This document shows positions 1-62,892 of a DNA stretch of 64,000 nt, piece after piece. The DNA is from Candidatus Woesearchaeota archaeon (lineage in GTDB: Archaea > Nanobdellota > Nanobdellia > Woesearchaeales > SKIA01): the NCBI GenBank assembly GCA_046704725.1, contig JBJKRI010000004.1, positions 32,001-96,000 on the forward strand. Reading direction: 5' to 3'. The position numbers were made by a program, and so were the translations under genes. The notes below the pieces were generated by a model, which saw nothing but the letters and a program-made list of their open reading frames with translations, was not told the origin of the DNA and made no database searches. Numbering within the stretch: the first letter of the stretch is position 1; each line of letters begins with the position of its first letter.

Positions 1-1175
<1,175 letters not shown>

Positions 1176-3516
1176 TCTTGGACGGACGGCGACGCCCTAT
1201 AAGAACCTTCGCGGCGAGAAAGACGATGACCGCCGAGAGCAGCCACGCCCACCACGTCGAGCCGGAGACATGCACGGTGACGGGAACGGCTCCCGCAACG
1301 GCGTGCGCGGAGTTGTCAGAGCCGGTGAGGCTCGCCGTGATGACGCCCTTGTAGGTGCCGGACGGCAAGGTGATATTGCCGCTGTAGGCCCCGTCGGCAT
1401 AGGCGAGCGGGAAGCGGTACTGGCCGAAGACCGCGTTCACGGTCGCTTGCGGGATGCAGCCGTACGTGCTGCTCGAGGGGACTGCAAGGCCGTTCGCGCG
1501 AGAACGCACCTTCGCGCTGAGCACGAACGTCCCGTGCACCGTGCCGGGAGCCTTCACGTCGTACACGTCGAGACCGGGCTGCTGGGTCAGGGCGTAGATC
1601 TCGCCGAAGACCCGCGACAAGGAGGACTTGTCGCTGTTCGAGAAATAGAAATTACCGCAATCGTTCTTCGCGCGCGACTCACCGGCCATGCTCGCGAGCA
1701 AGTCAGTGGCGTTCACTCCCTGGTCGCCATAGCCGATAGTGTACAAGCACGCGTCGCCGAGCGCGCTATCGACCGCCTTGATGATCGCGGGCTTCCCGCC
1801 CGGATCGTATGGAGCGCCGTCGGACAAGAAGATGATGAGCGCCTTGCGGGTGCTACCAGAGAGCCTGACCTGGCTGCCGGCAAGCTTCAATGCGTTGATG
1901 TAGAAGGTCGAGCCGTCGCTCGTGATGGAATTCACCCCCGCGATGAGCGAGGGGAAGTCGGAGGTCAACGGGCGCACGATGAGCGCGTCATCGGAGAAGA
2001 CGATGAGCGAGGCACGGTCACCGGACTCGAGGACATGCAACAAGCCGTCAGCGGCCGCTTTGGCGTTCGCCAAGGGGGCTCCGGACATGCTTCCCGAGCG
2101 GTCGATCACCAAGACGAGATCGACAGGATCGTGATGGCTCGTGTTATCGTTGCGGAACGTTCCGGTGAAATCCGCGTTGGGATCGTGGTAGGAATAGTCG
2201 CCCGGAGAGAATGTGTGCGTCCAGGACTGTCCCGGCTGCAGCACAGGGGAGGACCACGAGCCGTCGGTCGCCTCGACGGAATGCGGATGAGTGTCGGCAT
2301 TGTGCCAGGTCACCACGCCCTCTGTGCTCACGCTCTGCGGCGAGAAGCCCTTGGGCCCGATCTCGACCTCGACGTACTTGTTGTTGTTCAGCAATGGCTG
2401 GAGCTTCGACCACGGGACCTGGCAGGCCTGCGAGGGACCCGCGGACACCGTCACGTTGCCCGAACGCTCGCCTGTGAACAGGCACGCGCCCCCGCACTCT
2501 TCTTCGGCGGAGATGTAGTACGTGTATTGCCCTGCGGGAAGGCTCTGGTTGAAGGACAAGGCCGTCCCTGAACGCTTGGCGACGACCCGCTTGCCCTGCA
2601 GCACGGTGAACGTGAGCGTAGGGGAGAAGCACGTATCGGCCAGGGATGCGTTGTTGATGGCGCTAGACAAGGAAGTGTTGATCCGCACTCCCTGGTCGCC
2701 CGAGACGTTCGCCGCCACATCGATGACCTGCTCGGAGGACACGCGCGAATAGATGCTCGAGAAGATATGCTGGAGATCGAAATCGTTCTCTCCCGCGCGG
2801 AAGTACTGCCCGCAGCCAGTCTCCTGCTGGGAGATGGAAGCCATGCGCTGCAGGATCTGCTGGGCATCGGCCTCCGCGGAGGCGGCGTAGGCGATCGTGA
2901 AGATGCAGGTCCCTTGCTTGCCGAGCTGCGAGACCAGGTTGAACAGCGCCGTCTGGTTATCGTCTGGCTTGCCGTCGGACAAGAAGACGATGATGCGACG
3001 GTTTGCGCCCGTCAAGGACTGCGCCTTGCGCAACCCCGCGCTGTACTGGGTGAAATCACCGACCTGGATATCGTTTATTGCGGTGTGCAACTGCTGCTTG
3101 TCAGCGGTGAGGGCGGAGAAGACCTCTGCGTGGCTGTCGAAAGCGATGACCGCCGCGCGGTCACCGCGTGTGAGCGCGTCAACGAGGTCGTTGGCCGCGG
3201 TCTTGGCGCGATCGAGCTTGCTGCCGCGCATGCTCCCGGAGCGGTCGAGCACGAGGACATAATCCTTCGCGCCCTGCTGCGCGATGGTGGCGTTCGTGCC
3301 GTACGTAAGCAGGTGCGCCGCCTGCGGCTCGGTGCAGACCGCGCCTACGGCGAGCAAAGAGACTGCCAACAAGACGAGCACCGCGGCTCTCCTCACCTCT
3401 CTACCGCCGCACGGCATGCCATTCTGCCGGAATGACCATATAAAAAGCTATGCGGCGCGAAATCTTTCCGGAAAACAGGCTGGAGAGCACTAAAAGCCCG
3501 GATACGGAGAGGATCC

Positions 3517-4517: not shown

Positions 4518-5681
4518 ATGGAATTACCGGCGATAGCCCTCGGGATCGGCGCAGGCATCGTGACCGGCCTCACGCCGGGCGTGCATGTCAATCTTGTCGC
4601 GACGCTCGCATTGGCCGCCGGGGCGGGAGCCGCTGCAGTGCCTTTTCTTCTGGGACTGGCCGTCACGCACACCTTCTTGGACACCATCCCCGGGGTGCTG
4701 TTGGGAGCGCCGGACGCGGACACCGCGCTCGGCGTCCTGCCGGGGCATCGCTACCTGCTCCGCGGCTGGGGCTACATGGCCGTCAAGCTCACGCTCGTCG
4801 GCTCGCTCCTCGGGCTTGTCGCGGCGACAGCGCTCATCCCGCTCTGGTGGCTCGCCATCCAAGCGTACCCCTATCTCGTGTCCGTCATGGGATACGTCCT
4901 GCTCGTCGTGTCGGCATACCTGATCCTGCGCGACCGGCAAAGGAAATGGGCGGTCGTCGTCTTCGGACTGTCGGCAATCCTCGGCTATCTCCTCCTGAAC
5001 AGGCCATTGCTCACCGACCCGTTATTCCCGCTCTTCAGCGGACTGTTCGGGACGAGCACCTTGCTGTACAGCCTGAAGAGCGACCCCGTCGTGCCGCCGC
5101 AACAGATCGAGACGCGCATCCAAGTACGATGGAAAGACGCTTCACGCGCGATCGGCGCAGGAACCTTCGCCGGATTCCTGACGAGCATGCTCCCCGGCCT
5201 CGGGAGCGCGCAAGCCGCGATCATCGGACAGCGACTGTCCGGACGCGTGGGAGACCACGGCTTTCTCGTATTGCTCGGAGCGGTCAGCACAGTGAACTTC
5301 ACGCTCTCATTGCTCACTTGGCTGGCATTGGACAAGGCACGGAACGGCGCTGTGGTGGCGATGCAACAGCTCACGCTGCCGAGCCTCCTATTGACCGCGC
5401 GACTGTTCGCCGCCGCGCTGCTGGCGGGAGGCATCGCCACATTCCTGGGCATCGCCCTTGCGAGAAAAGCGGTGAGACTCATCAACCGCGTGCCCTACAA
5501 GGGGCTCTCCATCGGTATCGTGGCGCTCATCGTCGCGCTCGTCGGCATATTGACGGGACTGAGGGGATTGCTCGTGCTCACCGTCGCCACAGGTATAGGC
5601 CTTGTGCCAGCGGTCACGCGGACAAGCCGCGCGCAGGCCATGGGCTGCCTGCTCCTACCGGTAGCACTATACTTTCTTTAG
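4518..5681 (+). CDS. Tripartite tricarboxylate transporter TctA-family (DUF112) membrane protein
   Basis: GIVTGLTPGVHVN, HTFLDTIPGVLLGAPD, LPGHRYL..G.G, PLFSGLFG, LPGLGSAQA motifs. Confidence 0.88.
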   Translation: MELPAIALGIGAGIVTGLTPGVHVNLVATLALAAGAGAAAVPFLLGLAVTHTFLDTIPGVLLGAPDADTALGVLPGHRYLLRGWGYMAVKLTLVGSLLGLVAATALIPLWWLAIQAYPYLVSVMGYVLLVVSAYLILRDRQRKWAVVVFGLSAILGYLLLNRPLLTDPLFPLFSGLFGTSTLLYSLKSDPVVPPQQIETRIQVRWKDASRAIGAGTFAGFLTSMLPGLGSAQAAIIGQRLSGRVGDHGFLVLLGAVSTVNFTLSLLTWLALDKARNGAVVAMQQLTLPSLLLTARLFAAALLAGGIATFLGIALARKAVRLINRVPYKGLSIGIVALIVALVGILTGLRGLLVLTVATGIGLVPAVTRTSRAQAMGCLLLPVALYFL

Positions 5682-6567
5682 CCGCGATAATCGCGATATC
5701 CTGAGCGGCCCCATCCAGCGGTTTCACGAGGACGTCGACATGACGCGCATTCGTGTATCGCATGGTTGGGGCAAGGGATAACAAGTATTGCATACGTGGT
5801 CCGCCGCCGATGGAGAGCTGCAGGATGTGCTTCGATCGCCAGAACCTCCGGGCGCCCACATAACCAGCGTGATCCGCAGCGATATCGACGAGCCGGTCCG
5901 ACACATTCTCCACTGCAGGCCTTTCAAGGCTTGGGATATCGAACCGTGCGTTGAATCGAGTGCGGAAATCGACGCGCACCTCCTTTGTTCCTGTCGCGAA
6001 AGGAAGCGCAGCGATCCCGCTCCGATCACGATTGGCGAAGGTCCGAAGATCGCCGAGCACGATCAGGTCCGAGTACAGCTCCGCAGAGCTTGTCTCGTAT
6101 GCGCCGCCCGCCGGCGAGAATGTATGCTCGTTCCAAGACGTATCCCGTCGCGACGCGACAGGGTACGCATTCACTGCTGCGCTCTCGTATGCTATCGGCA
6201 CGATCTGCAGATTGTTCTGGCTCACCGCGACCGCTGACGGTCGAGTCTTCCTAGCGATCGCCCCATCCATGGACGCGAGCGAAAATCGCAAGCAAAGTCC
6301 TTTAAGGAAATTCTTGCTGAAAGGCACTACTTGGACCTGCCCGCCGCTGAGGCCAACGGTCATGTAATTGCTGGAACTCCAGAAGCCGAAAGTACTTTGC
6401 TGTCTTGTACGCACGCCGATGTATGGATATCGCTGCGCATCCTCGATGAGGCGCGCGAGGCCGTCTTCGCTATTCGCGTAAAGAGGCCGCTCGCGCGGGA
6501 GCCCCTTCAAGCGCTCCTTGCTGATATCTGCCTCATATGTTCCCTCCGGGGTACGGACCGTGGTCAT
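5614..6567 (-). CDS. Hypothetical protein
   Basis: 317-aa ORF with a TATA-like element upstream (about 6590); no recognisable motif. Confidence 0.6.
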   Translation of the reverse strand: MTTVRTPEGTYEADISKERLKGLPRERPLYANSEDGLARLIEDAQRYPYIGVRTRQQSTFGFWSSSNYMTVGLSGGQVQVVPFSKNFLKGLCLRFSLASMDGAIARKTRPSAVAVSQNNLQIVPIAYESAAVNAYPVASRRDTSWNEHTFSPAGGAYETSSAELYSDLIVLGDLRTFANRDRSGIAALPFATGTKEVRVDFRTRFNARFDIPSLERPAVENVSDRLVDIAADHAGYVGARRFWRSKHILQLSIGGGPRMQYLLSLAPTMRYTNARHVDVLVKPLDGAAQDIAIIAAKESIVLPVGAGSPWPARGLSA

Positions 6568-6910: not shown

Positions 6911-7333
6911 TCAGCGCGCGTTCTCGAGCTCTGCCGCCTCTTCTTGCCGAACGCGTTCATCAAATTTGTCCTCTTCCTCGAGCCGCTTCTTCAGATCATC
7001 CACAAGACGGTTGAGAGATGCGATGAGCTCATGGTTCGGATTCTCCACGATGATGCGGAAGATGGCTTGGATATGTTTGATATCCTCTTCCTCGGCGCGA
7101 AGAATGTTTTGCAGACCTTTGTTGTGTTTAGACAACCAGATCTCTTTTCGCTCATTACGATCGAGGACGTCCAGTGCCTTATTGATGCTTTCTCGTAGCT
7201 TGACCGCGCTATTGTCCTCTTTGAACCCTTCGATCAGGAAGTCCACATACCTTTTCAGATTCTGGATGGTCAACAAGGTAATCGACTTGATGTGTACGCT
7301 GATTTTCTCGTACCTCTTGAGATCCTCGTCCAT
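6911..7333 (-). CDS. Helical, charged hypothetical protein
   Basis: 140-aa ORF following 7336-7938 with a GGAGGA SD; more AT-rich codons than its neighbours. Confidence 0.7.
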   Translation of the reverse strand: MDEDLKRYEKISVHIKSITLLTIQNLKRYVDFLIEGFKEDNSAVKLRESINKALDVLDRNERKEIWLSKHNKGLQNILRAEEEDIKHIQAIFRIIVENPNHELIASLNRLVDDLKKRLEEEDKFDERVRQEEAAELENAR

Positions 7334-7335
7334 TC

Positions 7336-7938
7336 CTATCCTCCGATGAGGTCCGCGGTGGCGGCTCCCATGATAGCAAGGATGCTGACCGCGGCCACGT
7401 TCTTATAGATATCGGCGAACGACATCGTCGGTCCGATGCGACCGAACAAGAAGAGCACGAAAGCGATGACGATGTGCGCGGTCAAGTAGATCGTGAGCAC
7501 GCGCCACGGGATCCACTTATGATGGCGCACCGCCTTGACCTTCCGGAAACCGCTGAAGTAGATGAAGAGAACGAGCAAGACGAAGCTCGTCGCCATCAAC
7601 GCGTTCGCGCGCGCGATGCTCAAGCCGACGGCGATCTCTCCGCCGTAGAAGAAGGCGAAGTGGCCAACGATACCGAAGAACGAGCCGATGATGCCCTTGG
7701 TCACGTCGCGGTACGTGATGCGCGTCAAAGGATGCGGAGCGGTCTCCTTGTTGATCTGCTCCTCGAGCTGCTTGAGCTCCTCGAGGTCGGCGAGCTCTGC
7801 CTCCTCGTCCTTCTCGACCTCCTGCTCCTCATGCGCTTCCTTGGTGAGCTTCTTCTCGAGGCGGGCGATGCGACGCTTCATCGAGCGCACGTCGGACGCG
7901 ACGTCGTCGAGCACCTCTTTCTCGGTCTTGGTTGCCAT
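7336..7938 (-). CDS. Membrane protein with N-terminal coiled coil (DUF2391-like)
   Basis: Acidic coiled coil, then ITYRDVTKGIIGSFFG and about 4 TM helices ending MGAATADLIG. Confidence 0.75.
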   Translation of the reverse strand: MATKTEKEVLDDVASDVRSMKRRIARLEKKLTKEAHEEQEVEKDEEAELADLEELKQLEEQINKETAPHPLTRITYRDVTKGIIGSFFGIVGHFAFFYGGEIAVGLSIARANALMATSFVLLVLFIYFSGFRKVKAVRHHKWIPWRVLTIYLTAHIVIAFVLFLFGRIGPTMSFADIYKNVAAVSILAIMGAATADLIGG

Positions 7939-7942
7939 GAGT

Positions 7943-8383
7943 TCAGGCGGGATACGTGGTGGTCGCGTTGGTCGCCTGGCCGCCGCCCAGTGCCGCGGGG
8001 ACCATGGGAGTGATGAAGCCCCAGATGTACGGGCTCGCGGCGATCAGCGCGCCGATGACAAAGGCATGGCCGAGCTTCTCGCCCACGCTGTTATGCCCCT
8101 TGACGATGGCCGCCGCGCCCTTCACCTTGATGGTCGCGACAAGGCCGACGACGATGCGCAATCCCAGGTCGACCCAGAAGTTCTGCTGCAGATTGAGACC
8201 GACAAGGCCTGCGGCCCAGCCGAGATTCATAGCAATGAGGGTGAGGATAATCGCGATAGGCAACGTGTGGAAGCCGTGCGAGAGCCAGCCGAGCCCCTGC
8301 TCGTCGGCGTGCACGAAGAAGAGCTCGATGAGGCCGATGACGCCACCCATGATGAGCGCGGGAACGAGCATGAATCCTGCCAT
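7943..8383 (-). CDS. Conserved-looking 4-TM hypothetical membrane protein
   Basis: Hydrophobic 146 aa with polar intramembrane motifs (ELFFVHADE, HGFH, GEKLGHA); TATA at about 8408. Confidence 0.8.
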   Translation of the reverse strand: MAGFMLVPALIMGGVIGLIELFFVHADEQGLGWLSHGFHTLPIAIILTLIAMNLGWAAGLVGLNLQQNFWVDLGLRIVVGLVATIKVKGAAAIVKGHNSVGEKLGHAFVIGALIAASPYIWGFITPMVPAALGGGQATNATTTYPA

Positions 8384-8493
8384 GCGTCGTTTCCCGGAAG
8401 ACGCTCCTTATAAAGCTATTCCTGTGTGCGTCACCCTTCACGCGAAGGGAATCTTTAAATACGGTCTTCCGGGGAAAAACGGGCGATACAACC

Positions 8494-10551
8494 GTGGGAA
8501 CGAGCAGGAGAATCGCAGCAATAGCACTCGGACTAAGCATGCTCTTGCCCGCGGTGCGCGCCGCGGTCCCGAGTCAGAGCATCTGGCAAGGACTCGGGAA
8601 AGGATGGGCGCTCATCAATCCAGCGGCGGTCTACCAGCAGGGCAATCCCGCAGCGCACGTCATCGACGCGATACTCCTGTTCATCATCATCTTCGTGAGC
8701 GTCTTCGACATCGCGCGAAGCAAGGTCGGAGGACGCCAATTCCCCAAGAGCGTCGCGGCCGCGATGGGGCTGATAGTCTGGCTGCCGCTAGTCATCTACC
8801 TCAACGCGAACGGGCAGCTCCTGCTCACGAACATCTGGACGGTCTCCGCGTCCATCATCATCTTGACCCTGAACGTGGCGTTGCTCTTCCAGAAGTATGC
8901 GGCCTCGCTCGGCAAGACGACCAAGCGATGGAAGATTCTCTCGTTCCTGCTCGCGCTCGGGGTCGTCGGCGCGGGGATGACCGGTTTCCTCCAGCGCGCG
9001 ATCGCCACGTCGGCGACCGAACAGAGCGTGAAGGGATGGATGACCTATATCTACGGCATGGGTTGGCCGCTCGCGCTCATCTTCGGGCTCGGCATGCTCT
9101 TGCTCAGCGCGACAGGAGGCTACGCGCTGGGACGACAAGACAGGATGCGCGATGTCGCCTCCAAGAGTGACGACGCGGAAAAGAGAGCGAGAAAAGAACG
9201 GCGGCAGCGAAACAAGGAAGGCAAGAAGGACGACAAGTTCCTCAAGCGAGCCGAGCGTATCGAGACGGAGGCATCGGCTGACGCCGCGAGCCTGCGCGCG
9301 CAAGACCGCGGACTCGGGCAACGGCTCCAGGTCCTGCGGGTCCAGCTCCAGGACCTCAGCGACCACGTGAAGTCCTACGCGGAATGGAAACGCAAGAACA
9401 AACACGACCTGCCGAGCAACTACAAGGATAGCCTTGTCGCCGCGGCGAAGAGCTGGGAGACCCTTCTGCAGAGCTTCGAGGAGGACGTCGAGAAATTCGC
9501 GACGACCCTCAAGAAGGAAGCGAACACGATCGCATCGAACGTCAAGATCAATCTCGACGAGCTGCATACCCGTCGGCAACAGCTCGAGGGGACCAAGGCG
9601 AACATCGACTCCATCCGGAACGACGTGGAATCGATACGACGTGACGCCGCGAAGGCGCTGGCGGCAGCGGCAAAGGTGAAGCAGCGCAGCGTACAGGCAC
9701 AAGATGAAGAGGGTAGCCTGGCGGAATACTTCAAGAACAATACGAACGACCTGCGGAAATTCGCGAATCTCGCGGACAGTCAGCGCGGAATCATCGAGGA
9801 GCAGGAGCGGGCAGTCGCGACGTACGACACCGACGCGCAGCGCCTCGACAGCGCCATGCGCCAGGTCGAGAGCACCGAGCGCCTCGTCAGGAACGCAGAG
9901 AACGATATCGGCGAAATGCTCGACGAAGTCGTCAAGGATGTACGGAGCGCACGCGAGGACATCCGCAACGGGTTGGAGAATGTCAGAGTGAGCAGGACGC
10001 AGAACGCCGTGCGCGCGATCGACAAGGCGATCGCCACTGTGGCGAAAACGAATCAACTCGCGTCGCGACAGAGCGAGGCCGCACAGAACGCCGAGAATGT
10101 CATCGAAGAGCAAGAAAGAGCATGGGACCAGTTCTCCACCATCGATGACGGCCTCATCGGCAAGCTCCTGAATGCGGCAGAACGGGCGAAGGAACTGTTC
10201 ATCGCCTCCGATCTTGTCGAGGAGATATTCGACGGCGCGCTCATCCTCGAAGAACGCCTAAAGCAACTTCGGATAGCCATGGAGTACAACAAGAAGGACC
10301 ATCGGGGGGAATGGTTCAAGAGACAGCAGGTCGCGACCAAGGTCCTCAACGACGCGCGCAGCGAGATCAGTCGGAAACTTGAAGCGGTCATCAGGCGTGC
10401 CGCGCGCAAGCAGACGACTGTCGAAATGGCGAATACACTCCGTGAGATGCGCGCTCTGGCAGAGGGCTTGATAGCTGCGGTGACGCAAGATGAGGGCGCC
10501 GTGCGCAGGGATGCGCTCGCAAAATTGAAGGCTGTGAGGGCTGCCGTATGA
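8494..10551 (+). CDS. Large polytopic membrane protein with a long C-terminal coiled-coil domain
   Basis: Signal-like N-terminus, about 5 TM helices, then about 450 aa of charged alpha-helical heptads. Confidence 0.85.
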   Translation: MGTSRRIAAIALGLSMLLPAVRAAVPSQSIWQGLGKGWALINPAAVYQQGNPAAHVIDAILLFIIIFVSVFDIARSKVGGRQFPKSVAAAMGLIVWLPLVIYLNANGQLLLTNIWTVSASIIILTLNVALLFQKYAASLGKTTKRWKILSFLLALGVVGAGMTGFLQRAIATSATEQSVKGWMTYIYGMGWPLALIFGLGMLLLSATGGYALGRQDRMRDVASKSDDAEKRARKERRQRNKEGKKDDKFLKRAERIETEASADAASLRAQDRGLGQRLQVLRVQLQDLSDHVKSYAEWKRKNKHDLPSNYKDSLVAAAKSWETLLQSFEEDVEKFATTLKKEANTIASNVKINLDELHTRRQQLEGTKANIDSIRNDVESIRRDAAKALAAAAKVKQRSVQAQDEEGSLAEYFKNNTNDLRKFANLADSQRGIIEEQERAVATYDTDAQRLDSAMRQVESTERLVRNAENDIGEMLDEVVKDVRSAREDIRNGLENVRVSRTQNAVRAIDKAIATVAKTNQLASRQSEAAQNAENVIEEQERAWDQFSTIDDGLIGKLLNAAERAKELFIASDLVEEIFDGALILEERLKQLRIAMEYNKKDHRGEWFKRQQVATKVLNDARSEISRKLEAVIRRAARKQTTVEMANTLREMRALAEGLIAAVTQDEGAVRRDALAKLKAVRAAV

Positions 10552-13500
10552 GCCCGTCTTTTCTCGCGTACCCGCTCGGACTGCTGAATCCCGCGCAGGT
10601 CTATCTCACCGCGCCGTACCTCTGGGACGCGATCATCTACTTCATGCTCTTCCTCGGTCTTGCGACGTTCGTCTACACGCAGAAAGGAACGTACGGGAAG
10701 AAACGTGGAAAGCCCGTCGCGATCGCCATCGCGATGGCGCTCACATTTTCGCTGTCAGTATGGGAATACACGAGCGGCTGGTATCTCGGTCAGACGCGCT
10801 TCGCCATCCTCCCCCTCATCATCTTGCTCGGGCTGTTCTTCCTGCTCTTCTATCGCATGCTCACACAGATGTTCAACATGAAGGCGCACTGCGCGGCGGC
10901 GATATCCTATTATCTCACCTACGCCGGCGCGGGTGGCATGTTCGACGGCGCCATCAGCTCCGGACTCTCGCAATACCCCTCGATCGGCATGGTGCTCGAC
11001 ATCCTGATACTCACCGCGTTCATCACGTTGATCGTGTGCGTCATTGGATTGTTCCCCAAGTCGACGCCGACGGGAACAGGTGACGATGGTGGGGGCACGT
11101 CGTCCGGAGCGGGCACCATGCCTGACGGGGGCCGGGGAGGCAACGAACCAGGAGGGTTGTCTCCAGGGAAACCCGGGAAAGGCGGGCTCGAGGTGAAACT
11201 GAAGGAGCCGAAGAACAAGGCGAAGATTTCGGTGGACGACAAACTTCCGGTGAAAGCGAAGATCAGCGGCGGGACCGGAAACTATGTGTGGCGTGTCATC
11301 ACGCAGAAGGACGGCGGCGATGCAGAAGAGCAGAAGCGAGGGAAAGGGGAGAACGTGAAGGTCTCTGTCGGACCCTTCCCGCCCGGGAAGTACCGTGTCT
11401 ACGTCATCGTGCAGGACGGTCAGTCCGAGGCCAATGCGAACGCCCGATTCCGCGTCGAGTACAAGGACTCACAACTCGGCGTGATCGAAGGGACCGGTGT
11501 CTACGCGACCACCGACGAGCCGGTCCAGGACCGGACGATATTCTATCTCGTCGACGAGTACTTCGACCAACTGACCGGAAAGGACGGCAAGCCCATACGG
11601 ACCACGGGTCGCGTGGATGACGACGAGTGCACGTTCGTGTTCAAGGATATCCCCATCCCCAAGGAAGGGATCAACGTATGGGTGCAGGGGTACACCCCGT
11701 CAGGTGAGAACGGACGCTCTGAAAGCGCGGTGAACCTGCGCCGCGACGATCGGAAGAAGAGCGTGCGCGTGCGCTTCGGCGTCTCACCCAATCGCGTACT
11801 GCCGCAATTCGAGCAACCGCGGGAAAACGCAGAGCTGCTGGCCGGAGAAACGAGTGATGTGAAGCTCTATTTCCACGGCCCGGCGGGGGCGACCGCCATG
11901 TACAGCATCTCACTTGTGGACCGCAATAGTCACGAGGTGGTAAACGTCGTGCAGAACGCGAGCGTCAGGATACTCGGTACGGCCGTGGAGCGAAGGCACG
12001 CGATGACGCATCCGAAGGCGCCCGGAGCATACACGCTGACACTGACCTACGTCCAAGGTGAGCGCCGCGGCTCGATCAAACGGGAGGTCAGGGTCGTGGG
12101 CTCCACCGAAGGGACGCTGCGGGTGTCCGTGAAGCCCGAGCAAGAGCAATACGAAACACTGGATGTGGTCAAGTTCCAGCTGCATGTGGACGGACTGCAG
12201 GGCGTGAAACGCGAATGGAGGGCCATCCGCGGGGAGAACAACAAGAAGATCACCGATTGGATTGCGCTGGAAGGCGACACCGGAACATTCGACGGCACGC
12301 TGCGACTGCGGCACGGCCTCAACTTAACAGGAAAGCAACGCATACGCATCCTCGTACGGGACGGATACTCTGTCGGCAGCGACGAATTCACAGTGGAAAT
12401 CTTGTCCTCGGAACCACAGCGTGCAGTGACCATCTCCGGGCATGTGACCGACAGCGGCGCGCCGTCAGAGGGCCGATATGTACAGGTGCTCGACGAAAGA
12501 GGCGCGGAGCTGAAACGTTCCGACGAGACGCGTATCACGCCGAACAACCCTGACCTGTCGGGCGCATACAGCCTGCAATTGGGTACCATTCCGGACGGAC
12601 CACTCATCATCCAGGTCGTTGGCGCGCCGCAGACTGCACGGCCGCTGCAGATTGCCGAAGGAGCGAACGAGATACACGAGGACTTCGACCTCTCCGGGAA
12701 CACAACGCCGACGCCCGATAGCAATGTGACTGTCTTCCGAGGTCTCGTGCTGCATGTAGAGCCCAATGGCCGGATAGTCGGACCAGCGGCTGGAGGGGCC
12801 GTGAGATTGTCTTTTGACGGTACGCTGATTGCGCAAACGAGGATCGCGGACAACGGCTCGTACGCAGTCCGCGACACGCACCCCAAAACAGGCGTATATG
12901 TGTTGGATGCGGACACTGCGCGTGGACACAAGACTTTGCGCATCCGCATCAACCGACCGGGTCGTGTCAGTGAGAACCTGTTGGTCCCCGTAGATGCGAA
13001 TACAGGACAGCAATTTATTGTTGAGGGCAAGGCAGTATATGATGACGGCCGCGGGATAACCGAGGTATTGCCGCGCAACAGTACAGCGCAGCTCATCAAG
13101 GACGGTCGCCAGCGTGGTATTCAAGGCGTGGGGCCGGACGGAAGCTTCCGTGTCGCGGATGACTCTCCAGTCAGAGGCGATTACTTGCTCGTCATCGAGA
13201 CTCCCTTTGGCGAACGAGAATCCAGGACTGTGCGCTACGATCCGGACAGTCCGTCGATAGAGAAGAATATCAAGGTTGAGCGCGTGCAGACGGTCGTTGT
13301 CGGGCGCGTTCTCTCGGGAGGACACGGCGTTCCCGACGCGGAAGTGTCCGTGCTCACGCCGCGGGGTGAACCTGTTGATTGGAATACGACGACGGATCGT
13401 GAAGGGCGCTTTTCATTCGACGGTGTCCCTCGACTCGGAGAGTTCTATCTGCAGGCAATCACTGCTGAGGGGACCGGGCGCACGGAGTTGCTGAGAATGC

Positions 13501-14153
13501 CTGACACCGGCCGGATCGACGGCCTGGATATCGAGATAGCCGCTGGGCGAGACGGGAGCGAGGCGCGGTCGAGAACAGTGACTGGCAGCGATGCACGTCT
13601 GATTGTCAAACCCGCCGAGCAGACCGCAGATCATCTGCGCACGAACGGTAAGAATGTCTGGTACGGTGACGTGCGCAATCCGCTCACCGGGCAGAACCGC
13701 CTCGATTTCGAGATCTTTCCCCCCAAGGTTCCTGTGAGAGGCAATTTCCGCATCGCCGTCGGTGTGTCCGCGATATCCGGGAATGAGCGAAAGGACCTCA
13801 CGAATCGACAATTCAGCGCGTTGCACTTGAAGCTGTTGGCCCGCAGGAAGAAGGGAGAACCCATGACCAGTGAGATATCCTTCACAGCGGGCAGGGGAAG
13901 GGATGAAGGACGCTGGGTCGCGAACAATCAAGCAGTGTTCCAAAGCGCGGAAAGCATCAATGCAAGCCTGTTGCTGGATCTTTCTGACGGCGAGTCAGCG
14001 TTCGATATCGTGCCGGGCGCCGAGGCCTTCGTATTCGTCGTCACAGTGCATATAGGGACGCGGAACACGGTGAGCGAACTAGCCGGTGAGAAACTGATCG
14101 GGTATGCGGTCCTCACTGTCCGGAAGCCCGCCACGCGTCAAGAGGGCTCTTGA
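10548..14153 (+). CDS. Large membrane protein with a Gly-rich linker and tandem Ig/carboxypeptidase-regulatory-like beta-sandwich domains
   Basis: About 5 N-terminal TMs, G/P/T linker, repeated segments such as TISGHVTDSGAP, VVGRVLSGGHGVPDAEVSV...TTTDREGRFSFDGVP; ATGA overlap with the upstream gene. Confidence 0.85.
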   Translation: MSPSFLAYPLGLLNPAQVYLTAPYLWDAIIYFMLFLGLATFVYTQKGTYGKKRGKPVAIAIAMALTFSLSVWEYTSGWYLGQTRFAILPLIILLGLFFLLFYRMLTQMFNMKAHCAAAISYYLTYAGAGGMFDGAISSGLSQYPSIGMVLDILILTAFITLIVCVIGLFPKSTPTGTGDDGGGTSSGAGTMPDGGRGGNEPGGLSPGKPGKGGLEVKLKEPKNKAKISVDDKLPVKAKISGGTGNYVWRVITQKDGGDAEEQKRGKGENVKVSVGPFPPGKYRVYVIVQDGQSEANANARFRVEYKDSQLGVIEGTGVYATTDEPVQDRTIFYLVDEYFDQLTGKDGKPIRTTGRVDDDECTFVFKDIPIPKEGINVWVQGYTPSGENGRSESAVNLRRDDRKKSVRVRFGVSPNRVLPQFEQPRENAELLAGETSDVKLYFHGPAGATAMYSISLVDRNSHEVVNVVQNASVRILGTAVERRHAMTHPKAPGAYTLTLTYVQGERRGSIKREVRVVGSTEGTLRVSVKPEQEQYETLDVVKFQLHVDGLQGVKREWRAIRGENNKKITDWIALEGDTGTFDGTLRLRHGLNLTGKQRIRILVRDGYSVGSDEFTVEILSSEPQRAVTISGHVTDSGAPSEGRYVQVLDERGAELKRSDETRITPNNPDLSGAYSLQLGTIPDGPLIIQVVGAPQTARPLQIAEGANEIHEDFDLSGNTTPTPDSNVTVFRGLVLHVEPNGRIVGPAAGGAVRLSFDGTLIAQTRIADNGSYAVRDTHPKTGVYVLDADTARGHKTLRIRINRPGRVSENLLVPVDANTGQQFIVEGKAVYDDGRGITEVLPRNSTAQLIKDGRQRGIQGVGPDGSFRVADDSPVRGDYLLVIETPFGERESRTVRYDPDSPSIEKNIKVERVQTVVVGRVLSGGHGVPDAEVSVLTPRGEPVDWNTTTDREGRFSFDGVPRLGEFYLQAITAEGTGRTELLRMPDTGRIDGLDIEIAAGRDGSEARSRTVTGSDARLIVKPAEQTADHLRTNGKNVWYGDVRNPLTGQNRLDFEIFPPKVPVRGNFRIAVGVSAISGNERKDLTNRQFSALHLKLLARRKKGEPMTSEISFTAGRGRDEGRWVANNQAVFQSAESINASLLLDLSDGESAFDIVPGAEAFVFVVTVHIGTRNTVSELAGEKLIGYAVLTVRKPATRQEGS

Positions 14154-14916
14154 CGTCCTTGATCGTGTCGCGCGTAACGTGCGTGTAGATCTGCGTGGTC
14201 TGCAGGTTCGCGTGCCCGAGCAGTTCTTGGATGATTCGAACGTCCGTGCCCCCCTCGAGCAGGTGCGTGGCGAACGAGTGGCGGAGCACGTGCGGAGTCA
14301 CGTGTTTCGCGATGCCCGCGCGCTCGGAGGCATCCGCGACGATCGCTTGCACGTTGCGCGTGGTCATTGTGCCGTCGCCGAAGATGAAACCCTCGCCTCG
14401 CAGCTGTTCGCGCAGGCTGTCGGGGATGACGGTGATGCGGTCCTTACCCCCCTTTCCTTGTCGTACGTGCAAGGTACCGTCCGAGGAGATGTCGTCATAG
14501 CGGAGCTTGACGAGCTCGGAGACCCGCAGCCCGCAGGCGTAGAGCAACTCGATCATGAGACGGGACTGCTTCGTGGGAGCCGCCTGCACCAGTGAAGCGA
14601 CCTCTTCTTTCGTCAGATGGACAGGATGCTTCTGCGCGACCTTCGGAGCGCGGATGCCGGTGAAACCGCGCTCGAGGACCTCATTGTAGTAGAAGAGCAA
14701 TGCGCTGCGCGCGAGATTCACCGTGCGCGATGCCTTGCCATCGTCAATGAGCGTCGCGAGGTACGCTTTGATATCGTCCTTGGTGACATTCTCAGCATCC
14801 TTGCCCAGCCGCTTGAGGAACTGCGTGTTGTAGCGCAGATACGCCTTCTTGGTGTGCGGGGACAATCCGCGGAGCGTCATCTCCGTCTGCAAACGCTTCA
14901 TTTTATGCGAATACAC
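14113..14916 (-). CDS. xerA: Site-specific tyrosine recombinase, XerA/XerD-like
   Basis: SAM-like N-domain (RGLSPHTKKAY), LLYACGLRVSEL, GKGGKDR, HVLRHSFATHLLEGG.D.R.IQELLGH...TTQIYTHV. Confidence 0.92.
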   Translation of the reverse strand: MYSHKMKRLQTEMTLRGLSPHTKKAYLRYNTQFLKRLGKDAENVTKDDIKAYLATLIDDGKASRTVNLARSALLFYYNEVLERGFTGIRAPKVAQKHPVHLTKEEVASLVQAAPTKQSRLMIELLYACGLRVSELVKLRYDDISSDGTLHVRQGKGGKDRITVIPDSLREQLRGEGFIFGDGTMTTRNVQAIVADASERAGIAKHVTPHVLRHSFATHLLEGGTDVRIIQELLGHANLQTTQIYTHVTRDTIKDVKSPLDAWRASGQ

Positions 14917-14939: not shown

Positions 14940-15515
14940 CTACGCTACCAATTCGAGCTGCGGCTTGGCAGTTGGGATTGTTTCGTACAACTGTTCAGGC
15001 AGTTCCCTCTTGAGGTCGCGATAGATCGTGGAGGTCGATACACCCCACAGATTGGCGATATCGCGTACAGATGTCCCTTGCTTCCGCATCGCTTGAGCGT
15101 TCATCGCACGTCCGGCGATGTCCCAGGGGCGGGCTTCCCTCCGCGAAAGCCTGTTTGAAGTGCGTATTTCGCGGTATAGCTCCTCTTGACTGACTGTAGA
15201 GCTCGCTATGATGTGATATACCGGGGTGTTCGAGTTATAATAGAGGTCGATCGCAGTCTCCAGGGTTATGGGCCCGGAGCTTTGAAATGCCGTTTGCGGA
15301 CTGGGAGCTGGTGTTTGTGGGACGGGAACTGCCTGTGCATCGGTATCAGAATTGGTGGGCTCACGTACAGGGATGACGAGCGGGATCATCGGTTCCTCAG
15401 CAGATCGAAACAGATCCAGTACTCTGGCTACAAGACCGTGCGCACGCGCTGTCAAGTCATAAGCGCGTGTGAGAATAGTCTGCTTCGGTATGAACTGCTG
15501 AATCGTCTGATACAT
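14940..15515 (-). CDS. Hypothetical protein with C-terminal helix-turn-helix (start uncertain, up to 15587)
   Basis: GTSVRDIANLWGVSTSTIYRDLK is a typical HTH. Confidence 0.7.
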   Translation of the reverse strand: MYQTIQQFIPKQTILTRAYDLTARAHGLVARVLDLFRSAEEPMIPLVIPVREPTNSDTDAQAVPVPQTPAPSPQTAFQSSGPITLETAIDLYYNSNTPVYHIIASSTVSQEELYREIRTSNRLSRREARPWDIAGRAMNAQAMRKQGTSVRDIANLWGVSTSTIYRDLKRELPEQLYETIPTAKPQLELVA

Positions 15516-15926
15516 CGCTGTTTGCTGCAACTGCTTTGGTGCGTAGCGCGAAGTCCGTTCAGTAGGTGTGGATGCGCGGTCGCGCAACGCTGCGTATCCT
15601 TCGTGGATTCTTGCTGAGAATCTGCCTCACACTGATTCCGTTGGGTTGCGTGACCTCTCTAAAGCGTTTTCGATAATCATTACTGAATAGGGGTATATCT
15701 CCATGCTATTTAAATATGCATTCTTTGATGTGTTTAATGGGCTGTATTATGATTATAATATATGCTTATAAATAATAGACGTTGTATTGTGAATTGTATG
15801 TCCAATATGTTAGTACTATTAAATTATGTGTTTCGAGGATGTCTGAAATATGTCGTTTTGTCGTAAAACTTTTTGTAGAGGATGGAATGCTGCGGCTTTA
15901 TAAAGTGCTCCGTGCAAATACGCCCC

Positions 15927-16544
15927 ATGAAATCGAGCAGACGCGCAGTGACCTGGGCGGTACTCAGTACGATTGTCGCGGGAAATGCCCTCGCAGGCTG
16001 CAGGATCGCCACACCGAGCAAGAAGACCCCTGAAGAGCTTGTCCCGGCCGCCACACAAGTGGAGCATGAAATGGAAGAGGGCAGATTCGCCGATGCCGGC
16101 GAGAAATTCGTGAGCTTTGCACAGGCGTGCCCTGGCACCGTGGACGCGCAGCAGGTCGGCGAGGTCTGCGCGAGTCTCGAATTGATCAAGAAGTACGCCG
16201 ATGCCATGATTGCCAACAAGGGGCTTGAAAGCTGGAAAGCTGGGCTGTCCGAGCTGGACCATGAGAATATGGCGTTTCTCACTGAAGGGCTCAAGCACTA
16301 CGCCAAGCTCATGAACGGATCGGATTATGATCTCCGAAAGCGGATGCTCTATGGGTTGCTGCCTACCCTGAACAAGGTACGCGACGGTCTTGAGCTGACT
16401 GTGCAGGCGAAGAACTCCTCCGTCTCCAAGCCGAGGGGAATTCTCGCTCGAGCGACAGGTTTGTCGCCCGACTGGGTATTGAAGGATGCGGAGAAGACGC
16501 GGAACGCGTATCTGAAGGCGCTTTCCCAGGCACTGCAGCCATAG
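15927..16544 (+). CDS. Putative lipoprotein, helical
   Basis: MKSSRR, hydrophobic stretch, then lipobox-like LAGC; TTTATAAA about 23 nt upstream. Confidence 0.65.
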   Translation: MKSSRRAVTWAVLSTIVAGNALAGCRIATPSKKTPEELVPAATQVEHEMEEGRFADAGEKFVSFAQACPGTVDAQQVGEVCASLELIKKYADAMIANKGLESWKAGLSELDHENMAFLTEGLKHYAKLMNGSDYDLRKRMLYGLLPTLNKVRDGLELTVQAKNSSVSKPRGILARATGLSPDWVLKDAEKTRNAYLKALSQALQP

Positions 16545-16570
16545 TTCGCATAATATACATTATCTGTATT
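16543..16570. other. dif-like Xer recombination site candidate
   Basis: AGTTCGCATAA-TATACA-TTATCTGTATT: 11-6-11 layout, inner ATAA/TTAT inverted repeat, resembles E. coli dif GGTGCGCATAA-TGTATA-TTATGTTAAAT; 1.6 kb from the Xer gene. Confidence 0.55.
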
Positions 16571-16763
16571 TATTTTCCGCCTGAATCGTGGTTTGTTTAA
16601 ATAGGGGGATGTAGAAGACAGGAAATCATGCACGAAACGTCTCATTTGTCTAGGAAAGCCCAATAGTTTGCTGCTGTTTGTTGCGATTCCGATCCCACCA
16701 TCTAACAAACATACAGTACACAATACATCATGAATATGTACTTTATGCCCATAGATTTTAGAA

Positions 16764-17792
16764 TTACAGAACTGGTTCGTTCCCGTTGTGGAAGAAGGCG
16801 AAGACCTTCTTCTCGATGGTGAAATCATCGTATCCATGCATGAAGAGTGCGATGGCCACGCCGATGAGGACGAAGTGCGGCCACACCGCCTCTTTGAAGA
16901 AGATGAGGCTGATGGTGAGAAACGTCAGGAAGAACAATGACGTAAAGCGGATGTCCATGCCGATGATGTAGAACAATCCGATGAGGATCTCCACAATCAT
17001 GGCCCCGAGCACCAGGAACATGGGGGAGAAGTGGAAATATGTGGTCAGATGGTAGGCTTTCACCGTGTCGAGGGCCAGGTCGGAATGGATGAGCTTGGCG
17101 TAGATGCTCGCATAGATCAGGCTAATGCCGAACAGCACCCGGAGAATCGGGAAGGTATAGCGCTCGAAGCTGGCGAAACGAGGCTTGAGCTTTCTCCACA
17201 CGTGGTCGAGGGAGAAGGTCTCTCCGCCCAATATGAGGACGAAGATCATCTCCCCGAGGTAATTGACGTAGGTGAGGGTGTACATGCCCTTGTTGAAGAG
17301 CACCGTGATGAAGCCCAAAAGCGCCACAAGCGCCGCAGGACGCGTCATGAAGCCGAGTATCAAGAAGACGCCGATGATGAAGAACGCCGCTCTCCAGAAG
17401 GGAGCGAAAGAGCCGAAGAGCGTCGATAAGGGTATCTCCGGACCGAATAATGCGTTGAAATAGCCCGCGGCGATCATGCACACGCCAAGCGTCCAGCGTG
17501 CGGCGATGCCCGCGTAGGGCTTGAGCTTGAGCAGCCAGGGATCGATCCCGCGCTGGATGAAATGCGACATGGAGAGCAGGAATATCGCCACGACAAGGAC
17601 TGTAGCCAGGAAACCCCAGAAGAAGAACTGCAGCTCGTCATGCGGGATGAGTGTGAGCGGGTCGGGGCTTCTCGCGGCCACGTCGCGAGCGATCGTGGAC
17701 TGGTTGAGGACGTAGATCTCGTGGGCCGAGACGGTCCCTGCCAGGCACAGCAGGAGTGTTGCTGCAAGGAGTATCGCTGCGAATCTCCACAT
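16764..17792 (-). CDS. DoxX-family membrane protein (duplicated DoxX-like halves)
   Basis: Signal peptide ending AHEIYVL; LILGFMTRPAA and EILIGLFYIIG..IRF halves; FSLDH; EAVWPH. Confidence 0.8.
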   Translation of the reverse strand: MWRFAAILLAATLLLCLAGTVSAHEIYVLNQSTIARDVAARSPDPLTLIPHDELQFFFWGFLATVLVVAIFLLSMSHFIQRGIDPWLLKLKPYAGIAARWTLGVCMIAAGYFNALFGPEIPLSTLFGSFAPFWRAAFFIIGVFLILGFMTRPAALVALLGFITVLFNKGMYTLTYVNYLGEMIFVLILGGETFSLDHVWRKLKPRFASFERYTFPILRVLFGISLIYASIYAKLIHSDLALDTVKAYHLTTYFHFSPMFLVLGAMIVEILIGLFYIIGMDIRFTSLFFLTFLTISLIFFKEAVWPHFVLIGVAIALFMHGYDDFTIEKKVFAFFHNGNEPVL

Positions 17793-17816
17793 CTTCTTAA
17801 CTACACGAAACGGTAC

Positions 17817-18146
17817 TTAAGCGTTCTGCGACCCCGCACGAGTGCGCACGGAACGGATCTTGTGCCGTAGACCGCGGAACAGCCTCGAGAACTCCTTGTA
17901 CAGCTCCGAGAGCTCCTGTTCCCCTCGCATCGAGAGCTTATAGCGCTTCTCCCTGCCCGAGCTTCTGTACGTGATGAGATGCTTTCTGTGCAGCGTCTTG
18001 AGCGCTGGATAGATCGTTCCTGGAGTCAGGAGGGCTCCGCGGCGATCGCCGATGCGTTTCGCTAGCTCTGTCCCTGTGGATGGCGTCCGCAGCTCGTGCA
18101 GGAGCAGGAAGGCGAGCGGCTCTGTGAGTTCGACGGCCCGTTTCAT
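17817..18146 (-). CDS. PadR-family transcriptional regulator
   Basis: TGTELAKRI...TPGTIYPALKTL...G REKRYKLS.RG. Confidence 0.9.
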   Translation of the reverse strand: MKRAVELTEPLAFLLLHELRTPSTGTELAKRIGDRRGALLTPGTIYPALKTLHRKHLITYRSSGREKRYKLSMRGEQELSELYKEFSRLFRGLRHKIRSVRTRAGSQNA

Positions 18147-18301
18147 GGCCGTCCATTCTCTGCCAGGGATATAAATATTGTGTTTCCAATATCAATAAAT
18201 ATGTTTCGCACACAATATCTAATAACTATAAGCGATTAATGATATTTTAAGATATGTGCAATTATTTTATTGTATTTACGATATGCTGAATAATTGGTTA
18301 T

Positions 18302-18823
18302 CTATTGCTGTTGTTCAAACAAGGATAATTGCATATCCCGACTCAATTGCTTCGAGAGATTATCATCGATGCCGACTATATTGTGACGTGCTTGAAGCTC
18401 GTGGAACTCGATGTCCAACAAGAGCAAGAACCGTCCCTCGGGCGAGCGCTGCTTGATCACCGGCACCCCTTTCTGGATGAGAGCGAACACCAGATCCTGA
18501 ACGTGCGACGACGGAAGGGAAAGGCGACGGGACAGCTCGGCATACCCGATCGGACCCGCCGCGGTATAGAGCAAGAGGAAGACCTCCTGCTCGCGAAGCG
18601 ACAGGGAGATACGCGAAAAACGCCCGAACGCGGGATCCTCCAGTCGCATTTGAAACCCTGCAAGGGCGTCTTGCACCTTGCAGAGCCGCTCACTCAACTC
18701 GAGAAGCATAGCGCGATTCTCGAGAGTCTCTTCGGTATTCGAGTTGATCGCGTCCAAGTGCTCGTCAAGCTCCTCCTTGACGGCGCCGAACGCCTGTCGC
18801 AGTCTTTTCTCCTTGCGGAACAA
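18302..18823 (-). CDS. Coiled-coil plus winged-helix DNA-binding protein (TTG start inferred)
   Basis: AFGAVKEELDEHLDAINSNT coiled coil; LSLREQEVFLLLY...YAELSRRLSLP...LIQKGVPVIK wHTH; GGGGGT SD before the TTG. Confidence 0.75.
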   Translation of the reverse strand: MFRKEKRLRQAFGAVKEELDEHLDAINSNTEETLENRAMLLELSERLCKVQDALAGFQMRLEDPAFGRFSRISLSLREQEVFLLLYTAAGPIGYAELSRRLSLPSSHVQDLVFALIQKGVPVIKQRSPEGRFLLLLDIEFHELQARHNIVGIDDNLSKQLSRDMQLSLFEQQQ

Positions 18824-28992: not shown

Positions 28993-29631
28993 ATGATGGA
29001 ACCGCTGGTCATAGTCAACTTCAAGACGTACAAGAAAGCTACAGGACAAGCCGCGGTGTCATTGACCCAGGCATGCGCAGAATCAGGAGCGCAAGTCGCT
29101 GTCCAGGCCGTCGACATCCAGGCGTGCGCCGCGACAGGAGCGCAGGTCTGGGCGCAGCACGTGGATTCGGCAGGGTACGGATCGCACACCGGAGCGGTCA
29201 TTGTAGAAGCTGTCAAGGCCGCAGGAGCGATCGGCACATTGCTCAACCACAGCGAGCATCGTCTCGACGACCCAACCATCGGCGAGACGGTGAAGCGATG
29301 CAAAGAGCTCGGCCTGAAGACCGTCGTGTGCGCGGCGAGCGTGGAGGAGGCAGAACGTTACAAGGCCTTCGCGCCAGACTATATCGCTGTCGAGATCCCT
29401 GCACTCATCGGCGGGGATGTGAGCATCATGAACGCCGAGCCGGGCATCGTCAAGCGCGCGGTTGAACAGCTCGGAAGCAACGTGCTCGTGGGAGCCGGCG
29501 TCTCCTCGGGGGATGACCTCAAGACCGCTATGGACGAGGGCGCTGCGGGCGTCCTGTTGGCGAGCGCGATCGCGAAGAAGGCGGACGACCCCAAGGCCGC
29601 GCTGCGCGAGCTCTACTCCAAACTCACGTAG
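28993..29631 (+). CDS. tpiA: Triosephosphate isomerase (archaeal type)
   Basis: VNFKTY, AQHVD, LLNHSE, AVE.P.LIG, VGAGV, GVLLASA. Confidence 0.96.
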   Translation: MMEPLVIVNFKTYKKATGQAAVSLTQACAESGAQVAVQAVDIQACAATGAQVWAQHVDSAGYGSHTGAVIVEAVKAAGAIGTLLNHSEHRLDDPTIGETVKRCKELGLKTVVCAASVEEAERYKAFAPDYIAVEIPALIGGDVSIMNAEPGIVKRAVEQLGSNVLVGAGVSSGDDLKTAMDEGAAGVLLASAIAKKADDPKAALRELYSKLT

Positions 29632-30152
29632 AGGTGCTGGACCCCGTAGACCGTCGAGGTCCCTTCATCGACCGTGACCGTGTAGATGAACTGCTTGGCA
29701 TCGATGTTCGTCGGAGGCGTGATGAGCACTGATTCGTACTTCGTCTGGCCCGGCTTGATATCGAGCGTGTCGGTGAAGTACTGTATCTGTCCGTTGCCCT
29801 CCTGTTTCGGATTGGCAGCAATAACATTGATCTTGAAACTGTTCATAGAAGCCCCGGTGTTCTTGATGCCGATGGCGAACATCGCTGTCTTCTGCGAGGA
29901 CCCCCCGCACAGGGGGCTTCCCGTCATCTTCGCGGTCTTGCTGTTGTCCGCGACGACGACGCGGCCGCCGCCCGCGAGGAGACGGTCGATCTGGTTCTGC
30001 GTCTGGGAATCGACGGTGTTCGAGTAATGCACTGCCGCGCACAACGCCTTGTAGGTGAGCGTGAAGGCCATACCGAGGATGACAATCGCGACGAGGAGGA
30101 TGACGACGGTGCTGGCCGCGAGCTCGATGCCGCGCTTATTTAGTGATCTCAT
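29613..30152 (-). CDS. Type IV pilin-like protein (class III signal peptide)
   Basis: NKRG|IELAASTVVILLVAIVIL. Confidence 0.75.
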   Translation of the reverse strand: MRSLNKRGIELAASTVVILLVAIVILGMAFTLTYKALCAAVHYSNTVDSQTQNQIDRLLAGGGRVVVADNSKTAKMTGSPLCGGSSQKTAMFAIGIKNTGASMNSFKINVIAANPKQEGNGQIQYFTDTLDIKPGQTKYESVLITPPTNIDAKQFIYTVTVDEGTSTVYGVQHLYVSLE

Positions 30153-60533: not shown

Positions 60534-60572
60534 GGGTTCGCACAGCGAAGGACGATATATAAGGACACCGGT

Positions 60573-61535: not shown

Positions 61536-61572
61536 CGGTGGGCAGGTGCCACGCGGCCTTATAAAGATTGCT

Positions 61573-62851: not shown

Positions 62852-62892
62852 GGACAGCCCTCCAGAACGAAACGACGCTTAAAAACCATTCG

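Follow-up and report, generated by a model that had tools for sequence, protein, structure and literature searches.

Two adjacent membrane protein genes, here called D and E, in a 64,000-nucleotide (nt) stretch of a Candidatus Woesearchaeota contig (JBJKRI010000004.1, positions 32,001 to 96,000; hereafter the window) begin with homologous N-terminal anchor modules of five transmembrane (TM) helices and continue into tails of different kinds. The anchor module defines a large unnamed family. Its commonest neighbor is a second family of small four-TM proteins, represented in the window by C146, which is encoded divergently from D. Our preferred reading, which we hold tentatively, is that the anchor and C146 would form an integral-membrane core carrying interchangeable cytoplasmic arms, i.e., the tails, as a lineage-specific two-part module of Woesearchaeota-type DPANN archaea. 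We favor it over display of the tails at the cell surface.

An earlier note on this DNA had pointed to similar N-terminal modules in D and E, and their homology is borne out. Pairwise similarity by BLASTP is marginal (27% over 73 amino acids [aa], e-value 0.001). When E was searched against 40 related genomes, its first 200 residues were found to head open reading frames (ORFs) of 197-1136 aa. A hidden Markov model (HMM) built from 11 E-like modules of relatives, with D excluded, matches D at an e-value of 3.4e−11. An hhalign comparison of the two N-termini, which had been set beforehand as a possible refutation, gave a significant alignment of the D-type profile (five sequences) with the E-type profile (six sequences), with a probability of 97.85% and an e-value of 6.6e−13 over 123 columns. 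Thus, the N-termini of D and E are homologous. The source genome contains no further anchor paralogs besides these two.

The tails of the two proteins are of different character. The 456 aa tail of D has a hydrophobic periodicity of 3.5 residues (z 10.8 against 200 shuffles) and a single Pro, and D matches no Pfam family above its cut-off. E continues through a Gly/Pro/Thr-rich linker into a non-helical tail of 986 aa (periodicity z −1.4) with a CarboxypepD_reg domain (PF13620, 39.9 bits; gathering cut-off 32.3). No further copy of this domain is significant in the tail, although there are hints of a second one near aa 711-860, and BLAST found no internal repeats within E. A coiled-coil-like tail of about 450 aa in D and the Gly-rich linker of E are thus upheld, whereas the "many" beta sandwiches described for E are not, as only the single CarboxypepD_reg is significant. 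A sequence search of solved structures with the anchor module, the E tail, and C146 returned nothing significant.

The HMM search that the earlier note proposed for the N-terminal modules yields a large family headed by this module. Searching 1.84 billion representative proteins with a profile of 23 modules gave 1396 representatives at e-values ≤1e−3, 915 at ≤1e−10, and 287 at ≤1e−30. The surveys of tails, leaders, and charges described below cover the best 150 of these 1396, E included. In all 150 the module starts within the first 21 residues and it is never found elsewhere in the protein, while total protein length spans 194-1416 aa. A conserved anchor with a variable C-terminus, as had been proposed, is therefore real. 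The AlphaFold2 (AF2) model of E aa 1-211 (pLDDT 82.3) has two short helices followed by long ones at 23-44, 50-76, 87-109, 113-131, and 144-168, and a further helix at 133-142; loops of 3-5 residues connect the five long helices. In 52 modules a Tyr just before helix 1 and an Asp at its start are invariant, and both D and E fit the family in having an N-terminal five-helix module with these residues.

The module itself has no Pfam, NCBIfam, or PDB match, and, E aside, Pfam gives no match at 1e−4 for 142 of the 149 best representatives. The tail domains that can be named among the 149 are Peptidase_C1 (three), CarboxypepD_reg (three, plus E), and fn3 (one). Foldseek with the models of the module and of C146 gave no match at an e-value ≤0.001. 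The best partial match of the module in VIA-align wide (Z 8.9, 80 residues aligned) is in the range of common helical arrangements, and named clusters in the ESM Atlas score 0.77 or less. A crude rule based on composition sorts the best 150 members into 67 with helical/charged tails, 51 with mixed ones, 28 with beta/Gly-Pro-Thr-rich ones, and four without a tail. A run of Gly lies near the end of the module in 53. We found no description of the anchor or C146 family in the literature searched on DPANN or Woesearchaeota membrane proteins, and found neither in PMC9258230 and PMC5898192, whose supplements may list both as unnamed clusters.

In a sample of 301 genomes from the order, 84 carry the anchor module (a tally that includes G212 and G187, both flagged unpublished), as do 79 of 301 high-quality genomes, each at least 90% complete, sampled from the phylum. 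Of these 79, 24 belong to other orders of the class. The spread of the proposed two-part module is class-level in GTDB terms. The source genome has two copies (D and E), and elsewhere two to four per genome are common, often in tandem. In five genomes, a tree of 53 modules groups copies from the same genome as sisters (support 99-100), and both the taxonomic family of the window and another, f80, contain older D-type and E-type lineages. Within the genus, neighboring genes are 55-68% identical and the modules 26-37%, while identity among the tails is close to random at about 21-26%; E-type tails there are 986, 925, and 124 aa long. The tails are thus fast-evolving and hypervariable, and tandem duplication is recurrent.

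Predicted topology would place the tails in the cytoplasm. Sec-like leader columns are matched in 108 of the 150 members, and D and most members have a putative signal peptide, judged by eye from a positive n-region, a hydrophobic core, and a small-x-small cleavage site. The net charge of loop 1 is +2.4 to +2.8 in each tail class. A leader followed by five helices with a strongly positive loop 1 would leave the C-terminus inside the cell. Split forms, found in G002, G003, and family f142, are consistent with this: their anchors are short or module-only and are followed by a coupled ORF with overlapping stop and start (Table 1). These downstream ORFs (693-817 aa), which we call split tails by position only, have no leader or TM helix, and BLAST found no similarity among them or to the E tail. 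In addition, a count over 146 tails shows no enrichment of N-glycosylation sequons (250 observed, 269.7 ± 16 expected), and the helical tails are depleted in them (50 observed, 71 ± 7.8 expected).

Several features weigh against this placement. The 25-residue stretch beyond helix 5 is not positive (net charge −0.3 to +0.7). The recognizable tail domains (papain-like, CarboxypepD_reg, and fn3) are usually extracellular, and no typically cytoplasmic domain was seen among the 149 representatives. The Gly/Pro/Thr-rich linkers resemble extracellular stalks. The fast evolution of the tails alone proves little, since coiled coils diverge fast for structural reasons. The first three of these features are what one would expect if the anchor held hypervariable tails outside the cell, where they would serve as adhesins, proteases, or arms for host contact, with C146 as a helper in assembly or export, and so are the extreme divergence of the tails and their repeated tandem duplication. 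The part of PMC6142677 drawn on here likewise reports raised non-synonymous diversity in hypothetical surface proteins of Nanoarchaeota and in a FlaJ/TadC homolog. We regard surface display as possible but doubtful, because the leader, five helices, and strongly positive loop 1 point the C-terminus inward, the sequons are not enriched and in helical tails are depleted, the coupled ORFs of the split forms have no signal peptide, and the commonest tails are highly charged helices (67/150). The conflict is real, and we weigh helix parity more heavily than the extracellular type of the tail domains. The earlier note had suggested an envelope machine, for example one for host attachment, fusion, or display of effectors, which is not supported as stated; the topology signals would put the tails in the cytoplasm.

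The C146 family has 148 matches of 128-198 aa, every one annotated as "hypothetical", and is always single copy in the 100 genomes in which it was found. Across 82 sequences E20, D27, H36, H39, H106, and P118 are invariant, and H25, K86, and E102 nearly so. AF2 predicts a confident four-helix bundle (pLDDT 86.9, pTM 0.81) with the acidic and His residues clustered at one membrane face. This side is richer in Lys and Arg, and the face thus probably looks into the cytoplasm. Judging from the types of residue, the Glu/Asp/His cluster is a putative metal site. C146 has no Pfam match; its best hit in VIA-align wide is partial (Z 6.7) and in the range of common helical arrangements, and the ESM Atlas returned only hypothetical archaeal clusters. 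A site-2 or other intramembrane metalloprotease was considered and rejected, for the consensus of the 82 sequences has H-x-D-E and H-x-x-H and no HExxH. Just one member of the family has a peptidase match (e-value 0.18), and the fold searches are unspecific.

When all ORFs were clustered in 35 anchor-centered loci, the commonest neighbor of the anchor was the C146 family, which has a member in 15 of the loci, immediately beside the anchor in 13 of them. The two genes are divergent in the window and in loci L014-L016, L018, L033, L038, and L039. C146 is co-directional upstream of the anchor in L031, L032, and L034, and co-directional downstream in L044 and L045. L35Ae, TctA, and XerA are found in 12, 10, and 9 of the 35 loci, respectively, which indicates an inherited neighborhood. 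We also crossed the anchor and C146 searches over the same 301 high-quality genomes and collated them by hand (the C146 tally includes G424, flagged unpublished). The anchor is in 79, C146 in 100, and both are in 43, compared to 26 expected by chance. They lie directly adjacent (<300 bp apart) in 21 of the 43 genomes, 0.3-5 kb apart in six, far apart on the same contig in two, and on different contigs in 14, eight of which belong to taxonomic family f138. In L048 a divergent anchor beside C146 is apparently cut between helix 4 and helix 5, into a 231 aa ORF with a leader and four helices and a downstream 422 aa ORF that opens with a single helix and runs through a GGG linker into a coiled-coil tail.

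Other counts tell against a fixed pair. The eight f138 genomes are all of those in that family that hold both genes, co-occurrence in the order sample is weak (both in 18 genomes, 15.3 expected), each family occurs without the other, and an anchor-like neighbor was seen in just 5-6 of 20 C146-centered loci, some of these being very divergent or split. The anchor profile surely misses divergent anchors. The synteny expected by the earlier note is thus found in part: C146 adjoins the anchor in 21/43 genomes, and the families also occur apart. The link between the anchor and C146 is strong where both exist, yet not obligate.

The other two small genes of the window are less firmly associated. B200 (periodicity z 5.4) starts with an amphipathic helix of about 75 aa, to which a membrane domain is joined. 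It scores 27.9 bits with PF09622 (DUF2391; cut-off 22), over model positions 174-274 of 275 only, and 31.5 bits with TIGR02587, far under the cut-off of 183.7. A full-text literature search for "DUF2391" found no paper. A B200 homolog is present in 7/35 family loci. A140 is small, charged, and helical, and its gene has a GC content of about 48% (0.57/0.23/0.65 by codon position). A tblastn search found no homologs of A140 in 34 loci; in the close relatives L014, L015, L016, and L018 the gene after B200 is a similar ORF of 120-146 aa. Of the small-gene partners named in the earlier note, the four-TM His/Glu protein stands, as it recurs in sister orders too and in varied orientation. The DUF2391-like protein is a weaker case, and the low-GC helical protein has positional analogs and no detectable homolog.

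These data also bear on whether there is a machine at all. Five independent membrane proteins could have stayed together simply through the inherited neighborhood of TctA, L35Ae, and XerA, and the recurrence of these three genes with the family, the weak co-occurrence in the order sample, the frequent finding of C146 alone, the rarely linked B200, and the non-conserved A140 all fit such an origin. It is nevertheless improbable, because the adjacency of C146 and the anchor is kept where the other neighbors all differ (L038, L039, L044, L045, L033, and L034), occurs in three orientations, and is seen in 21/43 genomes, whereas chance for two given genes in a genome of ~1100 genes is well under 1%.

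Some of the same loci hint at what the pair may serve. In L044 and L045 (Table 1) a T2SSE ATPase (e-value 1e−13), a 715 aa polytopic protein, the anchor, and C146 are co-directional with short gaps, and the position of the pair behind the ATPase and the polytopic protein hints at a scaffold role in a type-IV-filament-like machine. The source genome speaks against generalizing this, as it has five T2SSE ATPases and none is near the locus. L038 and L039 also have the anchor and C146 next to a T2SSE-type ATPase and a polytopic protein. These loci come from two taxonomic families of a sister order.

In the membrane core with cytoplasmic arms that we favor, the first part would be the five-helix anchor, with its N-terminus outside the cell, usually after a Sec-type leader, and its invariant Tyr and Asp at the outer end of helix 1. 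The C-terminus would emerge into the cytoplasm and lead through a flexible Gly/Pro-rich linker to the fast-evolving tail, coiled-coil-like in D and beta-rich in E. The second part would be the single-copy C146 with its putative metal site at the cytoplasmic membrane face. Adjacency suggests that the two may form a physical complex, i.e., one integral-membrane core, beneath which the tails could act as tethers or scaffolds; in some lineages they may serve the neighboring type-IV-pilus-like ATPase and platform.

Very unlikely, in our view, is regulated release, in which C146 would be a membrane-adjacent metal-dependent hydrolase that cuts the linker after helix 5 and frees the tail: the invariant Glu/Asp/His cluster at one membrane face, probably the cytoplasmic one where the Gly-rich linker is predicted to emerge, and the separate protein at the tail position of the split forms would suit it, but the C146 consensus has neither HExxH nor another known protease motif, C146 has no Pfam or fold match to hydrolases, and a Gly run lies near the module end in just 53/150 members. 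We would give equally little weight to the idea that the module and C146 are a self-contained export device of a new kind, which would carry signal-peptide-less cargo through the membrane of an ultrasmall symbiont to a host-facing surface or a cell-cell bridge. Its cargo would be the fused tail or the coupled downstream protein of the split forms. Such a device would reconcile the inside-pointing topology with the papain-like, CarboxypepD_reg, and fn3 domains of extracellular type.

The window is chromosomal and comes from a 1.18-Mb archaeal genome with 60% GC. Housekeeping genes are found across it, including ribosomal proteins, aminoacyl-tRNA synthetases, FtsZ, and thermosome. The names on relatives of its proteins are Woesearchaeota, with which the earlier assignment to DPANN fits. 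The gene layout in the earlier note could likewise be confirmed (Table 1). All five ORFs are present at the positions it gave. D and E are coupled by an ATGA overlap (TGA of D at 10549-10551, ATG of E at 10548-10550), the shared divergent gap put at about 110 bp measures exactly that, and the three minus-strand genes are tightly packed, with spacers of only 4 and 2 nt. The gap contains two TATA-like boxes, 25-31 nt 5′ of the minus-strand ATG and 33-40 nt 5′ of the GTG of D. This spacing is as expected for archaeal promoters on either strand, and the boxes are thus putative promoters.

The locus lies between TctA-family permease and L35Ae genes to one side and a recombinase gene to the other; the latter is convergent with E and shares 41 nt with the 3′ end of E. 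The recombinase scores 221.3 bits with the NCBIfam equivalog NF040815 (cut-off 220) and is thus a chromosomal Xer-type recombinase, XerA, which gives no evidence for a mobile element. A mobile element was ruled out on this ground and because the window is a housekeeping chromosome whose TctA/L35Ae/XerA neighborhood recurs in relatives. Beyond XerA the GC content drops to 0.49-0.53 (0.60 overall) in a stretch that includes a PadR regulator; PadR and the next ORF of this stretch also recur in the loci of relatives. The remaining side features are listed in Table 1.

Table 1. Features of the window and of selected related loci. Positions are those of the window unless a locus number is given.
Feature	Position	Strand	Description	Basis
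D (D685)	8494..10551	+	685 aa; GTG start	ORF list; family HMM match
D, leader	aa 1-24	+	signal-peptide-like
D, anchor module	8599-9201 (about aa 36-236)	+	5-TM; invariant Tyr47 and Asp58
D, tail	aa 230-685	+	amphipathic-helical (coiled-coil-like)
E (E1201)	10548..14153	+	1201 aa; ATG start	ORF list
E, anchor module	10548-11051 (aa 1-168)	+	5-TM; no leader; invariant Y19 and D27
E, linker	11052-11192 (aa 169-215)	+	Gly/Pro/Thr-rich
E, CarboxypepD_reg	13296-13484 (aa 917-979)	+	PF13620
C146	7943..8383	-	146 aa; 4-TM protein	alignments; AF2
B200	7336..7938	-	200 aa	partial DUF2391/TIGR02587 match
A140	6911..7333	-	140 aa; 3′-most gene of minus-strand trio
Divergent intergenic region	8384..8493	.	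110 bp; two TATA-like boxes	read from sequence
TATA-like box, minus-strand side	8408-8414		TTATAAA; putative promoter
TATA-like box, D side	8454-8461		TTTAAATA; putative promoter
XerA-type recombinase	14113-14916	-		NF040815
Low-GC stretch	15000-18500
HTH (helix-turn-helix) protein	14940-15587		low-GC stretch
Unnamed ORF	15882-16544		220 aa; low-GC stretch
DoxX-like membrane protein	16764-17792		low-GC stretch
PadR regulator	17817-18146		low-GC stretch
Putative gene	5614-6567	-	317 aa; no Pfam match; low third-position GC (0.65); overlaps end of TctA gene
VWA protein, window start	1141-3417	-	large, secreted-looking; two VWA domains
Pilin-like small ORF	29613-30152	-	short charged start, long hydrophobic helix; no Pfam match
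Pilin-like small ORF	30360-30902	-	as above
Pilin-like small ORF	62372-62851	-	as above
Cluster at window end	59655-63990	-	MoxR AAA ATPase, DUF58 protein, VWA gene
Split form	L015:5104-7239	-
Split form	L019:1785-4238	+
Split form	L038:7209-9290	+
Split form	L039:6600-8690	+
ATPase/anchor/C146 cluster	L044:1971-9327
ATPase/anchor/C146 cluster	L045:2193-9115
Divergent anchor, apparently cut	L048:5228-7193	-	beside C146

DPANN archaea depend on cell contact, and most of their membrane proteins are unnamed. Two unnamed families, both widespread in Woesearchaeota-type genomes (79 and 100 of 301 for the anchor and C146, respectively), are defined here; each has clear invariant residues, and their genes form a conserved pair. 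The analysis also exposes a sharp conflict between predicted topology, with the tails inside, and the types of tail domain, which belong outside. If the tails are inside, they would be a variable scaffold under the membrane; otherwise, they would be displayed or exported by an unknown route. Mutagenesis could start from the residues invariant in the anchor (Tyr and Asp) and from the Glu/Asp/His cluster of C146.

The resemblances to known systems, i.e., ZorA, extended VirB6, and FlaX, appear to be analogies of architecture and not signs of membership. ZorA of the Zorya system and stators of the MotA/ExbB type have a polytopic N-terminal membrane part that leads into a very long cytoplasmic coiled-coil tail, a small membrane partner encoded alongside, and an acidic residue conserved in a membrane helix. 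D is similar in its polytopic N-terminus and long coiled-coil-like tail, its small membrane partner, and its conserved acidic residue. However, the anchor module has five helices and would start outside after a leader, and C146 has four helices and a His cluster rather than a single Asp-bearing helix and a wall-binding domain. D and E have no MotA_ExbB match (Pfam, e-value ≤0.1) and no PADLOC match at 0.01, and fold searches with the module gave nothing specific. A defense system was likewise rejected, as PADLOC gave just weak coiled-coil noise.

VirB6/TrbL proteins have five helices with the N-terminus outside and the C-terminus inside, and Rickettsiales have extended tandem VirB6 paralogs with variable C-terminal extensions. 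The anchor family is comparable in its five helices, the same predicted orientation, variable C-terminal extensions, and tandem paralogs. It differs in that there are no type IV secretion genes at the locus. One full-length relative matches TrbL (NF010449) at 27.2 bits, compared to a cut-off of 442; none of 52 module-only sequences match, which makes the match compositional, and PF04610 has no match in 158 family proteins scanned. Membership in TrbL/VirB6 was thus rejected.

B200 resembles DUF2391/TIGR02587 in its membrane domain, which matches the C-terminal third of the Pfam model, and differs in its extra N-terminal amphipathic helix. To our knowledge the DUF2391 family has no known function.

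Finally, FlaX-type scaffolds of archaeal type IV filament machines consist of a membrane anchor and a cytoplasmic coiled coil. The likeness is architectural only, and the locus of the source genome is not near any of its five T2SSE ATPases. In two sister-order families, however, the genes for the anchor and C146 are co-directional with those for a T2SSE ATPase and a large polytopic protein and lie behind them.

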